A DNA stretch of 19,905 bases from a virus (lineage: Duplodnaviria; Heunggongvirae; Uroviricota; Caudoviricetes): the IMG/VR virus record IMGVR_UViG_3300022932_000016, positions 1 through 19,905 of that record; one strand, given 5' to 3'. The notes under the pieces are model-generated. The model made no database searches and was not told the origin of the DNA. It saw only the letters and a program-made list of their open reading frames with translations. A program made the position numbers and the translations under genes. Position 1 is the stretch's first letter. Each line of letters starts with the position of its first letter. Shown here in pieces: positions 2,852 to 7,860 of the stretch.

Positions 2852-2887
2852 AAAAAAAGACACCTACTTTTTTGGGTAGATGTCTTT
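2852..2887 (-). terminator. Intrinsic terminator of attenuator 2
   Basis: 12-bp stem AAAGACATCTAC/GTAGGTGTCTTT with an 8-nt loop, running into a U-tract. Confidence 0.85.
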
Positions 2888-2938
2888 CGTTGTTTTTGTT
2901 TTCAAATCTTCTTATGAAGAAAACGACAAGACACCTAC
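2876..2938 (-). promoter_or_regulatory. Antiterminator of attenuator 2
   Basis: GTAGGTGTCTT-G-TCGTT (in the last codons of the leader ORF) pairs with AACGA-AAGACATCTAC, the 5' arm of the terminator: 16 bp, mutually exclusive with the terminator. Confidence 0.8.
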
Positions 2939-3004
2939 ACTAAATTGATCTGGGCAATTTGACCAGAGCTGTGAGAGTAGTGAGTGACTATATAATGTCT
3001 TCAT
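2912..3004 (-). CDS. Leaderless attenuator leader peptide 2 (30 aa)
   Basis: MKTLYSHSLLSQLWSNCPDQFSVGVLSFSS*. The ATG is 6 nt after TATAAT and the ORF overlaps the antiterminator. Confidence 0.8.
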   Translation of the reverse strand: MKTLYSHSLLSQLWSNCPDQFSVGVLSFSS

Positions 3005-3010
3005 AATTTC

Positions 3011-3040
3011 ATTATACCATAAAAATAAATGGCAGTGCAA
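3011..3040 (-). promoter_or_regulatory. Sigma70-type promoter of tRNA unit 2
   Basis: TTGCAC-N18-TATAAT with an extended -10 (TGgTATAAT). Confidence 0.8.
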
Positions 3041-3469: not shown

Positions 3470-3697
3470 TTATATTTCTGCTTTGAGGTATTTATCGAGC
3501 AGGTCGTTGACTTGAGTAATGTGAATCATACCAGCTTGTTTCACAGCTATTTCACCAAAGTGTCTGCGTAGTACTTCAAAACCCTGTTCGAGTGCTTGCG
3601 TTTCTTCTTCAATGATGTCGCGAGTTAGGTCATGCACTAGACTTTCAGCTTGTCGTTTGACTAAGTTTGGGTCTGGGTCTTTGCGGTATGCTTCCAT
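3470..3697 (-). CDS. Hypothetical protein (75 aa) inserted in the tRNA array
   Basis: MEAYRKDPDPNLVKRQAESLV..., TATAAT (3704-3709) 6 nt before the ATG, stop abutting tRNA-Arg. Confidence 0.7.
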   Translation of the reverse strand: MEAYRKDPDPNLVKRQAESLVHDLTRDIIEEETQALEQGFEVLRRHFGEIAVKQAGMIHITQVNDLLDKYLKAEI

Positions 3698-3713
3698 ACT
3701 CTCATTATACGTA

Positions 3714-3788
3714 TGGTGCGGGTACACAGAATCGAACTGTGATCCCCTGATTGGAAGTCAGGTATATTAGCCGTTATACTATACCCGC
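3714..3788 (-). tRNA. trnG: tRNA-Gly(UCC)
   Basis: CCTGA CTTCCAA TCAGG, TTCGATT, A73, CCA. Confidence 0.94.
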
Positions 3789-3795
3789 ATTGATT

Positions 3796-3873
3796 TGGAG
3801 CCCCTCACGGAGTCGAACCGTTCTTCGTACCTACCACGGTACGCGTGCTAACCAGCGTTACACTAATTGGGGC
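3796..3873 (-). tRNA. Aberrant tRNA-Thr(GGU)-like gene with an 8-nt anticodon loop
   Basis: GCCCC/GGGGC acceptor with distal mismatches, D-arm GTGT/GCAC, CGTAC CGTGGTAG GTACG, 4-bp T-stem with TTCGACT, CCA. Confidence 0.65.
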
Positions 3874-3876
3874 GTA

Positions 3877-3950
3877 TGGGGCCGCCACTCGGTACTGCCC
3901 CGAGGTCGATAGTTTACAAAACTACTACTCTACTATTGAGCTATAGCGGC
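3877..3950 (-). tRNA. trnT: tRNA-Thr(UGU)
   Basis: GTAGT TTTGTAA ACTAT, variant T-loop GGCAGTA, D-loop AATAGTA, CCA. Confidence 0.9.
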
Positions 3951-4036: not shown

Positions 4037-4140
4037 TGGTGCACGGGGGTAGCTTTAGGCTACCTCTATTCTAATAACGCTTTGGTGCACCTCTACGCTT
4101 TCGATTCTCGAGCCACGTTGCAACGATGTGCTCTCCGTAC
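4037..4140 (-). ncRNA. CCA-ended non-cloverleaf RNA B (104 nt)
   Basis: Terminal stem GTACGG/CCGTGC + A + CCA, 3' hairpin GGTAGC-CTAAA-GCTACC, 5' hairpin GAGC...CGTTGCAACG...GCTC, flanked by 5- and 3-nt spacers. Confidence 0.65.
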
Positions 4141-4320: not shown

Positions 4321-4394
4321 TGGTCGGTGTAGGTGGTTCTGCCCCACCGTGTGCAGAATATAAGTCTGCTGTTCTACTATTGAACTATACACCA
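4321..4394 (-). tRNA. trnI: tRNA-Ile(UAU)
   Basis: GCAGA CTTATAT TCTGC, variant T-loop GGCAGAA, D-loop AATAGTA, ACCA. Confidence 0.88.
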
Positions 4395-4567: not shown

Positions 4568-4589
4568 AAAAAAAGAGCTATATAGCTCC
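4568..4589 (-). terminator. Intrinsic terminator of attenuator 1
   Basis: GGAGCT-ATAT-AGCTCT followed by a U-tract that ends 7 nt before tRNA-Lys(UUU). Confidence 0.75.
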
Positions 4590-4613
4590 AACTATGACTT
4601 GAGTTGTAAGCTA
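4583..4613 (-). promoter_or_regulatory. Antiterminator of attenuator 1
   Basis: TAGCTT-A-CAACT / AGTTG-GAGCTA (11 bp) sequesters the 5' arm of the terminator; it begins 2 nt after the leader stop codon. Confidence 0.75.
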
Positions 4614-4615
4614 AC

Positions 4616-4777
4616 TTATTCCTTTTTCTTTTCACCCCGTTTTGTTAATGTACCCATAATGAACCCTGTCGCCACTGCTATAGCAATAATGCCGCCAGCA
4701 ATCACTGTCGTCTCTTTGGTGCGCTTGACGTATTTAACTAGGTCAGTTGCTTCTTTTTGAATCTTTTGGGTATTCAT
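4616..4777 (-). CDS. Leaderless leader ORF 1 (53 aa), putative attenuator peptide with a hydrophobic segment
   Basis: MNTQKIQKEATDLVKYVKRTKETTVIAGGIIAIAVATGFIMGTLTKRGEKKKE*; the ATG is 7 nt after TATAAT. Confidence 0.75.
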   Translation of the reverse strand: MNTQKIQKEATDLVKYVKRTKETTVIAGGIIAIAVATGFIMGTLTKRGEKKKE

Positions 4778-4784
4778 AGTATTC

Positions 4785-4812
4785 ATTATACACATATTAG
4801 TATATAATGCAA
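4785..4812 (-). promoter_or_regulatory. Sigma70-type promoter of tRNA unit 1
   Basis: TTGCAT-N16-TATAAT. Confidence 0.7.
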
Positions 4813-4814
4813 AA

Positions 4815-5204: not shown

Positions 5205-5636
5205 ATGAAAGATATTCAGAACGAAGCAGAAACAGGTGTACAAACCATCACAGAGCTACAGCTGAACCTCGCGCAAATCGAGAACGAGCTGCAAACCAAC
5301 CCTAAGTTCATTGAGTTCCTACGCGTCCAGGACGAGCTTAACGCAAAGCGTTCAGAGTTCGATTCGACAATGAAAGACTTGATGATTGAGCGGTTCAAAG
5401 ATACTGGTGAAAAGAAGCTAGAAGTTGGTAACGCAACTTTCGCGCTGACACCACGTGAAGAGCTGATAATCACAGACGAAGACAAAGTTGACGATGCCTT
5501 CGTTACTAAAGTAACCGTAAAGAAACTCGACAAAGAAGCAGTGAAGGCTGTTCAAGTTCTTGAGGGTCGCCTCGTTGACGGAGTCGGTGTTCGACAATCA
5601 TTCGCATACAAACTAACCATTAAGGATAACGAATAA
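5205..5636 (+). CDS. Siphovirus Gp157/Gam-like coiled-coil protein
   Basis: N-terminal coiled coil plus IITDEDKVDDAF...KKLDKEAVK...VDGV pattern, directly upstream of RecT. TGcTATAAT lies 6 nt before the ATG at 5205. Confidence 0.7.
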   Translation: MKDIQNEAETGVQTITELQLNLAQIENELQTNPKFIEFLRVQDELNAKRSEFDSTMKDLMIERFKDTGEKKLEVGNATFALTPREELIITDEDKVDDAFVTKVTVKKLDKEAVKAVQVLEGRLVDGVGVRQSFAYKLTIKDNE

Positions 5637-6318: not shown

Positions 6319-6723
6319 ATGGGGAACCTTACTGGACGAATCAAAGAAGAAGAGAACGGTAAGGGGCTATGGCTGCTCGTTGATGACTTAGGTGGTCAAC
6401 GAGCAGAAAACCTGATAGACGAGCTTACACAACCCCGCACAACTGGTAGCGTAGCTTGGGCAGTTTTACCCGAAGAAATCGAAGCAATTCGTGACGCTTG
6501 TAACGACTACCTACGCGACAAGGAAGTTGACAGTATCGACATTGTATGGTCTGTTGACGACGTGTTTAACGTGATGTATGATTATGAAGAGAAAGACACC
6601 TACAGCGAAGACGATTACGAACTCGCTAGACAGGTTTTACAATACGTAAAGAATCATCACGACGCTACAGTCGGTGTTTCATGGGAGACACTTGAGTACG
6701 CGCTCGATCACCTAAGAGGATAA
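6319..6723 (+). CDS. Hypothetical acidic protein
   Basis: ORF track; tightly packed in the operon. Confidence 0.7.
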   Translation: MGNLTGRIKEEENGKGLWLLVDDLGGQRAENLIDELTQPRTTGSVAWAVLPEEIEAIRDACNDYLRDKEVDSIDIVWSVDDVFNVMYDYEEKDTYSEDDYELARQVLQYVKNHHDATVGVSWETLEYALDHLRG

Positions 6724-7300: not shown

Positions 7301-7860
7301 TGATTACTTACCACGACAAAATTGAACAAAACACGCCTGAATGGTTTGCTATTCGCGAAGACCACCCACTTACAGGGTCAACTTCGTATGAGTTTCTACT
7401 AGCCCGTAACCCAGCAACGTACGTTCTCAAAGAGAGCAACTTCACTGGTAACAAGTACACGGAGCGTGGTCATACGTTAGAGCCTGTAGCAAGGAAGCTC
7501 CTAGACCGCGTGTACGACATCAAAACGCTTGAGACGGGTTTCGTTACCAATAGCGACTTCCCGTGGTCAGGCTGCTCTCCAGACGGGTACACAGACGTAT
7601 ATATGGTCGAGATCAAATGCTTTATGAAAGAACGACACCTACTGAATGCGGTGACGACTGACGCGAAGATTTTATCCCAAGTGCAGTGGAACATGATGAT
7701 TATGGGCAAGAAGAAGGCGCTACTCGTTTTCTTTTGTCCTGATAATACGCTAGAACCGTCCGAACAGCTTATAATTAAAGAGATAGACGCTAACCCGCAT
7801 ATCTGGGCTAATATGAAGAATAGGATCGAAGTTTATGGCGCAGCAAGAACTAATACTTGA
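7300..7860 (+). CDS. YqaJ/lambda-exonuclease-like PD-(D/E)xK nuclease
   Basis: Q.T.EWF..R....TGS, RGHTLEP.AR, CSPDG, EIKC and QVQW motifs. Confidence 0.9.
   Translation: MITYHDKIEQNTPEWFAIREDHPLTGSTSYEFLLARNPATYVLKESNFTGNKYTERGHTLEPVARKLLDRVYDIKTLETGFVTNSDFPWSGCSPDGYTDVYMVEIKCFMKERHLLNAVTTDAKILSQVQWNMMIMGKKKALLVFFCPDNTLEPSEQLIIKEIDANPHIWANMKNRIEVYGAARTNT

Follow-up and report, generated by a model that had tools for sequence, protein, structure and literature searches.

A 30-codon open reading frame (ORF) lies on the minus strand of an uncultured-phage record, IMGVR_UViG_3300022932_000016, upstream of a 366-nt RNA and a series of tRNA genes. The stretch analyzed (the window, 19,905 nt) is the first 19.9 kb of this 83.9-kb record, and its tRNA array is divided into two parts, unit 1 and unit 2, by a 571-nt gap that holds the leader ORF together with an RNA switch (Table 1). 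The leader and switch probably constitute a ribosome-operated attenuator that ties transcription of the unit-2 tRNA operon to decoding by the same tRNAs. This reading rests on the anatomy of the element, codon-match statistics, folding energies, conservation, and the frequency of leaderless starts, while the transcript start, the translation of the ORF, the relative timing of ribosome and polymerase, and the physiological signal are what we infer. An attenuator had been proposed at this position by a sequence-only reading, and its promoter, its terminator, a mutually exclusive antiterminator, and a preserved leader frame of 30 codons all hold at the level of sequence.

The tRNAs of unit 2 comprise 14 isoacceptors and serve 11 amino acids (W, D, N, P, F, Y, C, L, S, H, and Q). 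Twelve tRNAs downstream of the leader were identified by ARAGORN with default settings; Tyr(GTA) at 1879-1949 was added by Rfam and relaxed ARAGORN, and Ser(GCT) at 1219-1302 by relaxed ARAGORN alone. As had been claimed from the sequence, the leader contains a codon for each of the 14 isoacceptors, and 24 of its 30 codons specify the 11 amino acids. The three Leu tRNAs are represented by TTA, CTA, and TTG and the two Ser tRNAs by TCA and AGT (at the codon level, CTC, which is used twice, needs U34:C reading by tRNA-Leu(UAG)). The six codons outside the set encode M, K, T, V, G, and V, in agreement with the earlier statement that only the MKT start and a VGV stretch fall outside it. These six are the start codon, AAG ACA, which copies the core of region 3, and GTA GGT GTC (GTAGGTGTC), which lies in region 2, the antiterminator strand to which VGV had been attributed. 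As the off-set codons belong to the start or to the RNA switch, every leader codon is accounted for by either the tRNA set or the switch.

The unit-2 amino acids make up 45% of the residues in the long ORFs of the phage, giving a P value of 2.5 × 10^-6 for the 24 found among the last 27 leader residues. A stricter null was needed because most codons for the unit-2 amino acids start with T or C and are favored by pyrimidine-rich DNA. Taking all stop-free stretches of 30 codons in the six frames of the whole 83.9-kb genome (n = 50,577), the leader alone combined at least 24 in-set codons with coverage of 14/14 isoacceptors. That an open frame has arisen by chance in AT- and pyrimidine-rich intergenic DNA is compatible with the 378 of these stretches that reach 24 in-set codons, and with the 12 codons upstream of the ATG, within the promoter, which also mostly specify unit-2 amino acids. 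This explanation is nevertheless extremely improbable: at fixed composition both values were reached by only 2 of 39,268 stop-free mononucleotide shuffles of the ORF (P ~5 × 10^-5), the one other genome locus that covers all 14 isoacceptors has 18 to 19 in-set codons, and the ORF, with its conserved frame, is placed exactly between a promoter and a terminator that is predicted to be switchable. Draws from the codon usage of the phage reached both values once in 200,000. Thus, the codon match is real and far beyond chance. In two-codon boxes ending in a pyrimidine, the genes of the phage favor the C-ending form (GAC, 70%; AAC, 75%; TTC, 68%; TAC, 70%), and 7 of the 9 such codons in the leader are the minor, T-ending form that is read by wobble (P = 0.004), a choice that fits a sensor tuned to be slow.

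The 11-mer GTAGGTGTCTT is present in exact form at 2938-2928, within codons 23 to 26 of the ORF, and at 2867-2857, in the 3' arm of the terminator, and its partner AAGACATCTAC at 2886-2876 pairs with it over 11 bp, including one G.U. This bears out both the repeat that the sequence-only reading had pointed to and the competition of its two copies for the one partner, as two mutually exclusive folds are predicted. In the antiterminator (2940-2873), the 11-mer pairing is followed by one bulged G and a 5-bp TCGTT:AACGA helix, giving 16 bp and -21.5 kcal/mol, which is stronger than the terminator at -16.0 kcal/mol. None of 2,000 shuffles of the upstream 113 nt sequestered all 16 bases of region 3, and the energy of the nascent RNA was -29.4, versus -18.7 +/- 3.3 in shuffles. 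A 5' copy of AAGACAT, identical to the core of the 5' arm of the terminator, can pair with region 2 or region 4, and in the antiterminated fold its partner is region 4. The presence of this copy explains why K and T codons occur outside the set. Using RNAalifold on four genomes, a consensus was obtained in which region 1 pairs with region 2 (columns 17 to 30 with 63 to 75) and the 5' AUGAAGA pairs with the end of the ORF. The 1:2 helix has 11 to 12 bp in the consensus fold and in the nascent RNA, without covariation support. The small conserved hairpin within the ORF may act as a pause hairpin for RNA polymerase.

Computing the two alternative folds had been put forward as a check on the earlier proposal. 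Over the complete transcript, -36.1 kcal/mol was computed for the terminated fold (1:2 plus 3:4) and -35.1 kcal/mol for the antiterminated one (2:3, in which the 5' AAGACAUU pairs with region 4); because these differ by only 1 kcal/mol, the element is bistable in the model. As the chain was lengthened, the optimal fold contained 1:2 at 82 to 118 nt, 2:3 at 124 to 148 nt, and 1:2 plus 3:4 from 154 nt. Small RNA genes share this layout of a promoter and, ~150 nt on, a terminator, and the element could be read as a stand-alone small gene, encoding a 30-amino-acid peptide or a ~150-nt small RNA from its own promoter to its own terminator, with the tRNAs expressed only by read-through from unit 1 and a codon match devoid of regulatory meaning. 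Small ORFs are common in phage tRNA clusters (those of T5 have Shine-Dalgarno sites and no switch), and the conserved frame would suit a peptide gene. Such a gene is distinctly unlikely given a 16-bp antiterminator that outdoes the terminator, takes its 5' arm, and was unmatched in 2,000 shuffles, together with global folds lying within 1 kcal/mol of each other and a compensatory change that keeps the antiterminator in relatives (see below). Further, the peptide has no membrane segment or recognizable motif and its composition follows the tRNA set, and for unit 2 the consensus scan gave no further promoter. With one mismatch or fewer allowed, GTAGGTGTCTT has five matches in the window against 0.43 expected, a number reached in 0 of 200 shuffles. 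A third exact copy was seen at 6593-6603 (minus strand), within a plus-strand ORF, and a copy with one mismatch at 7632-7642; these two are probably due to chance, though the count exceeds expectation.

Of the two promoter elements, the -35-like hexamer matches the consensus at only 3 of 6 positions, was missed by the consensus scan, and varies in relatives (TTGCAA and TTGTAT). The leader ATG at 3004 sits 6 nt past the -10 element and has no Shine-Dalgarno sequence; the polymerase would start at or next to A3004, giving a transcript that opens with AUG and would be translated as a leaderless mRNA. Across the whole genome, an ATG is located exactly 6 nt after TATAAT in six cases among 64 such hexamers, against 1 expected (P = 6 × 10^-4). 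The ORFs behind these six range from 30 to 381 codons, with three having 85, 143, and 381, and include a 381-amino-acid glycosyltransferase whose family match begins at residue 1, a 143-codon ORF at 5205, and a small ORF in unit 1 (ATG 3697). Leaderless mRNAs therefore appear to be routine in this phage and presumably in its host too. A promoter inside unit 2 was considered and dropped, as the consensus scan showed no other sigma-70-like promoter on the minus strand between 2850 and 996. Because none was found, unit 2 is, as far as such a scan can tell, reached only through the terminator at 2852-2888.

In the mechanism proposed, pairing of region 2 (2938-2922) with region 3 (2891-2876) would form the antiterminator and allow the polymerase to enter the 366-nt RNA and the 14 tRNA genes, whereas in the alternative fold region 1 would pair with region 2 and region 3 with region 4 (2867-2855), the latter being the terminator. 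If the leader is read smoothly, the ribosome would be at codons 20 to 30 or at the stop codon while the polymerase makes regions 3 and 4; positioned on region 2, it would leave the terminator to form, and transcription would end after ~150 nt. A wait at any of codons 4 to 19 would leave region 2 free and region 1 masked, so that the antiterminator would form and the operon would be transcribed. The leader would in this way serve as an OR gate reporting slow decoding by any of the tRNAs that the operon encodes, with negative feedback on their supply.

Ribosome positions were modeled by refolding the RNA under a mask that spans 15 nt upstream and 12 nt downstream of the first A-site base. With the A site at codons 2 to 19, 15 or 16 of the 16 antiterminator pairs remained in the nascent RNA; at codons 20, 21, and 22 the number was 12, 9, and 4, respectively, and at codons 23 to 30 it was 0. 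A ribosome at the stop codon left 9 of the 16 pairs possible in the prefix, and the full-length optimum was then the terminator. The suggestion that a ribosome at the stop codon covers much of the upstream copy and favors termination is thus borne out by the model in its outcome but not in its footprint, which takes in only the few 3'-most bases of the 11-mer and the whole extension. Similarly, the claim that every isoacceptor is sampled stands for the ORF as a whole (14/14), whereas codons 4 to 19, the positions at which a stall would still permit the antiterminator, call on 12 of the 14. Completed translation is thereby predicted to favor termination, and a wait at codons 4 to 19 to favor read-through.

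The leader was compared with those of three sister contigs (L003, L004, and L005) that share the array and are ~91% identical in the gap. Frame, start, and stop are intact in all three. Six substitution events were identified in the ORF, four synonymous and two nonsynonymous (P = 0.04 for at least four of six being synonymous). The synonymous changes (CTC to CTA, TCA to TCT, CCA to CCG, and TTT to TTC) each stay within the codons of the same isoacceptor, and codons 1 to 25 have only synonymous changes; the nonsynonymous changes, L26V and F28Y, are both in the 3' tail. F28Y is a U-to-A change in the region-2 extension and is matched by an A-to-U change in region 3 of L003 and L004, so that TCGTT:AACGA becomes TCGTAT:ATACGA, a helix used in the RNAfold structure of L003. 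This compensatory event is supportive but, being a single one, thin. With the other region-3 changes (U to C and A to G), either copy of the 11-mer can still be paired, the terminator stem is kept via one-sided changes, and CCA to CCG turns a U-A pair into U.G in the hairpin at 2949-2967 with the pair kept. Searches for further relatives with the exact terminator pattern, with a back-translated WSNCPDQF pattern, and with an 18-mer from the core of the 366-nt RNA each returned the three sister contigs only, as did an alignment search of metagenome contigs with the intra-cluster ORF. Querying viral contigs with the protein of that ORF gave the three sister contigs plus L014 and L015 only. Searches for cultured relatives with the region, by megablast and blastn, yielded similarity to tRNA-Glu only, and tblastn with the polynucleotide kinase gave nothing above 40% identity; contigs L006, L007, L034, and L038, reached via the kinase or a phosphoesterase, have no tRNAs in reach.

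A second candidate element, attenuator 1, precedes unit 1 and has a promoter (4813-4785), an ATG at 4777 that is 7 nt after TATAAT and opens a putatively leaderless 53-codon ORF, and a terminator at 4589-4574, whose 5' arm is captured by an antiterminator hairpin (-10.0 kcal/mol) beginning 2 nt past the stop codon. In this leader, 45 of the 53 residues are from the nine unit-1 amino acids, and the two leaders are reciprocal (45:8 versus 6:24; Fisher's P = 9 × 10^-9). Alone, the unit-1 leader is weaker support, since it could pass for a small membrane protein too. Contig L014, the more telling case, is more distant (the intra-cluster ORF shares 67% identity over the whole alignment and 72% in the best tblastn segment), and its record, which is 56% complete, covers unit 1 only, with no unit 2 in it. 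It carries a different 29-codon leader, of which 25 residues are from its own eight-amino-acid tRNA set (P = 4 × 10^-5), and its antiterminator begins directly after the leader stop. The L014 unit has no tRNA-Glu, and its leader has no Glu codon. Composition in L014 thus appears to follow the tRNA genes while sequence does not, as is predicted by a sensor and not by a structural peptide. AGR codons, which would correspond to tRNA-Arg(TCT), are absent from the unit-1 leader and from the L014 leader.

These leaders also bear on whether the element reports general translational capacity or infection timing, through ribosome availability or coupling, as a translation-coupled attenuator in which codon composition is secondary. 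The geometry of the switch needs only a ribosome that reaches or fails to reach codons 20 to 30, the codons per tRNA are few and scattered, and read-through may be the default for untranslated RNA, all of which would suit such a general device. It is unlikely, as it leaves unexplained the 14/14 isoacceptor coverage (P ~5 × 10^-5), the complementary set in the unit-1 leader, and the L014 leader's tracking of its own tRNA set, the absence of Glu included.

Leader-peptide attenuators of transcription are known from the amino acid operons of enterobacteria (trpL, hisL, pheL, and leuL). The phage element shares with these a promoter-proximal ORF whose codons would report the product of the operon and four RNA segments, with regulatory codons that overlap region 1 and a predicted choice between 1:2 plus 3:4 (terminator) and 2:3 (antiterminator); in the classical systems this choice is made by ribosome position, as it would be in the phage. 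It differs from them in that its targets are tRNAs and a structured RNA and not biosynthetic enzymes, in that each of 14 tRNA species is represented by one codon or a few and by no tandem run, and in its putatively leaderless mRNA, where the ORF includes region 2 and ends before region 3. In sequence it is not homologous to these leaders. Of the features of the attenuator class, the 5' short ORF, the regulatory codons, the terminator, the exclusive antiterminator, and an anti-antiterminator overlapping the regulatory codons are all found, while the tandem codon run, the biosynthetic genes, and the Shine-Dalgarno-led start of classical amino acid leaders are absent. Using Rfam, the best leader match was Phe_leader (18.7 bits against a gathering threshold of 55; E = 2.2), of which the element is not a member; at gathering thresholds only tRNAs were matched, and at E values of up to 10 the matches besides Phe_leader were noise. 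The T-box riboswitch, defined by a specifier loop and by the conserved T-box sequence to which the tRNA acceptor end binds, was not matched in Rfam at E values of up to 10.

The closest systems in logic are the multivalent attenuators, ilvGMEDA with Ile, Leu, and Val codons in its leader and thrL with Thr and Ile codons, in which several different codons are likewise integrated as an OR gate. These cover two or three amino acids of one pathway, whereas the phage leader covers 11 amino acids and 14 isoacceptors, a set given by the gene content of the operon. Such leaders, which are textbook examples, lend some credit to the view that the phage leader is a classical amino acid sensor, reporting starvation (uncharged tRNA) and hence host nutrition as trp, his, and ilv leaders do, and a stalled ribosome cannot distinguish a missing tRNA from an uncharged one. 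This view is very unlikely, because extra tRNA gives no relief of amino acid starvation and because the leader distinguishes isoacceptors (TTA, CTA, and TTG for Leu; TCA and AGT for Ser), which fits tRNA species and not amino acids. Closest in target is the pheST attenuator with its pheM leader, which, together with T-box riboswitches, controls genes of the translation apparatus by sensing tRNA. Both resemble the phage element in regulating parts of the decoding machinery and in taking the state of a tRNA as the signal; however, pheM senses one tRNA and controls a synthetase, and T-boxes bind uncharged tRNA directly, with no ribosome.

Among phages, T4 and T5 have large tRNA arrays that are similarly interrupted by small ORFs and by stable RNAs of unknown function, several of which are annotated in T5. 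T5 was rejected as a precedent, as the small ORFs examined in its tRNA region have Shine-Dalgarno sites and an ordinary protein-like composition and are followed by no terminator/antiterminator pair. A closer likeness was found in the Caulobacter phage phiCbK (47000-53000), where three tRNA blocks are each directly preceded by an annotated rho-independent terminator that itself follows a short ORF. One of these ORFs, gp335 (45 amino acids), has 31 residues from P, K, L, A, and S, which are the amino acids that ARAGORN assigns to the 10 tRNAs after it. phiCbK is an unrelated phage with unrelated sequence, and the likeness is one of annotation and composition. Another phiCbK ORF, of 32 codons, has its start 7 nt past a Caulobacter-type -10 element. 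No description of tRNA genes controlled by leader-peptide attenuation emerged from full-text literature searches, which covered few subscription journals. The mechanism proposed is that of the classical attenuators.

Several observations weigh against the attenuator proposed here. No terminator stands between unit 1 and this element to stop polymerases coming from there, and on their transcripts the leader would begin at an internal AUG without a Shine-Dalgarno sequence. The behavior of untranslated RNA is ambiguous in the model, as kinetics lead to 1:2 and termination and thermodynamics at the decision point lead to 2:3 and read-through. Each tRNA is sampled by one to five scattered codons, without the tandem runs of hisL or pheL, and the response to a single tRNA may be weak. 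The Phe codons (21 and 28) and the only TTG (codon 26) lie where a stalled ribosome would mask the antiterminator strand and so cannot work as the sequence-only reading supposed; TTG at codon 26 is, moreover, not conserved, as two of the three relatives have GTG there. That T-ending codons are preferred may be due simply to intergenic DNA being rich in A and T. Finally, the comparison is shallow, with three close relatives for the leader and one compensatory pair, and RNAalifold run on a MAFFT alignment shows no double-sided change, the compensating columns being misaligned (Table 1).

Essentially nothing is known of the timing and dosage with which phages express their own tRNA genes, and why they carry tRNAs is debated in terms of codon usage, host tRNA degradation, and escape from anticodon nucleases. 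It is conceivable, though somewhat short of an even chance, that tRNA-rich phages generally use leader ORFs bar-coded by codons, with a separate sensor for every block of tRNA genes that lists the species of that block. The decoding capacity of the cell would then be gauged one block at a time, and a block would be switched on when any of its tRNAs is depleted. Depletion would arise, for example, from host shut-off or from anticodon-nuclease defenses, making the attenuator a feedback loop of counter-defense, and the recurrence of such leaders in unrelated phages, based on attenuator 1, L014, and part of phiCbK, would be convergent. If the attenuator reading is true, the phage monitors the decoding of exactly those codons whose tRNAs it supplies and corrects shortages by feedback, which would favor explanations of phage tRNAs as replacing what is lost. 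Leader-peptide attenuation, so far a matter of amino acid metabolism, would then take in the decoding machinery as well, and leaderless mRNAs would gain a further example of attenuation. Such a leader would also be a predictor, from sequence only, of which tRNA genes share one transcription unit, and a compact natural sensor of multi-tRNA supply.

Table 1. Features of the candidate attenuator, the tRNA array, and related elements (window coordinates unless stated otherwise)
Feature	Coordinates	Strand	Remarks
Extended -10 element	3011-3019	minus	TGgTATAAT; read directly; invariant in 4 genomes
-35-like hexamer	3035-3040	minus	TTGCAC; 18 nt upstream of the -10 hexamer; read directly
Six ATG codons 6 nt after TATAAT	19368, 13335, 5205, 3697, 3004; genome position 61423
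Leader ORF	2912-3004	minus	30 sense codons and stop; ATG 3004-3002, TAA 2914-2912
5' copy of AAGACAT	2995-3001	minus	Codons 2-4, transcript nt 4-10; read directly
Region 1 (putative anti-antiterminator strand)	2975-2988	minus	Codons 6-10; pairs with region 2 in the RNAalifold consensus
Small conserved hairpin in the ORF	2949-2967	minus	Codons 13-19; present in every fold
Region 2 (putative antiterminator 5' strand)	2922-2938	minus	GTAGGTGTCTT, bulged G, and TCGTT; codons 23-28
Region 3	2876-2891	minus	AACGA and AAGACATCTAC; predicted to pair with region 2 or region 4
Region 4	2855-2867	minus	Terminator 3' side; predicted to pair with region 3
Predicted intrinsic terminator	2852-2888	minus	13-bp stem 2888-2876:2867-2855, 8-nt loop, 7 T (2858-2852)
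366-nt structured RNA	2485-2850	minus	First gene under the putative control; between terminator and tRNA-Trp
tRNA unit 2	996-2484	minus	W, D, N, P, F, Y, C, L(CAA), L(TAG), L(TAA), S(TGA), S(GCT), H, Q
Terminator-like hairpin closing unit 2	906-927	minus	From the consensus scan
tRNA unit 1	4560-3056	minus	Amino acids K, I, V, M, R, T, G, A, E
Candidate attenuator 1, before unit 1	4574-4813	minus	Promoter, leader, antiterminator hairpin, terminator
L014 unit-1 leader element	L014:4934-5099	plus	Different 29-codon leader, 6 nt after TATAAT

Besides the tRNA array, which runs on the minus strand from 4560 to 996, the window encodes a RecT-like protein, a polynucleotide kinase, phosphoesterases, and a glycosyltransferase. 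The 366-nt RNA that follows the leader terminator ends in CCA, after which comes the usual AATAT-type spacer; it had no Rfam match at E values of up to 10, has a fold z-score of -2.3, and in the sister genomes contains a variable insertion flanked by conserved blocks. The small ORF inside unit 1 (3470-3727, minus strand) matched no Pfam family. Conservation of this ORF with L014 begins just before ATG 3697, and it probably starts there (75 amino acids, leaderless, 6 nt after TATAAT) and not at GTG 3727.

The number of tRNAs in the array was 22 using default ARAGORN and 24 using Rfam; reading the extra Rfam matches together with relaxed ARAGORN added Thr(TGT), Ile(TAT), Tyr(GTA), and Ser(GCT). 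Those missed by default ARAGORN are Ser(GCT) at 1219-1302, Tyr(GTA) at 1879-1949, Thr(TGT) at 3880-3950, and Ile(TAT) at 4324-4394 (all minus strand). A doubtful Thr(GGT)-like element at ~3796-3873 (minus strand) was likewise missed. With the missed tRNAs included, units 1 and 2 serve all 20 amino acids. Unit 2 also carries tRNA-like elements, and slots of the array are filled by tRNA-sized elements without a normal cloverleaf at 2037-2160, 1758-1873, and 4037-4140 (minus strand), the first of which has, by eye, acceptor-like ends and a hairpin resembling a T-arm.

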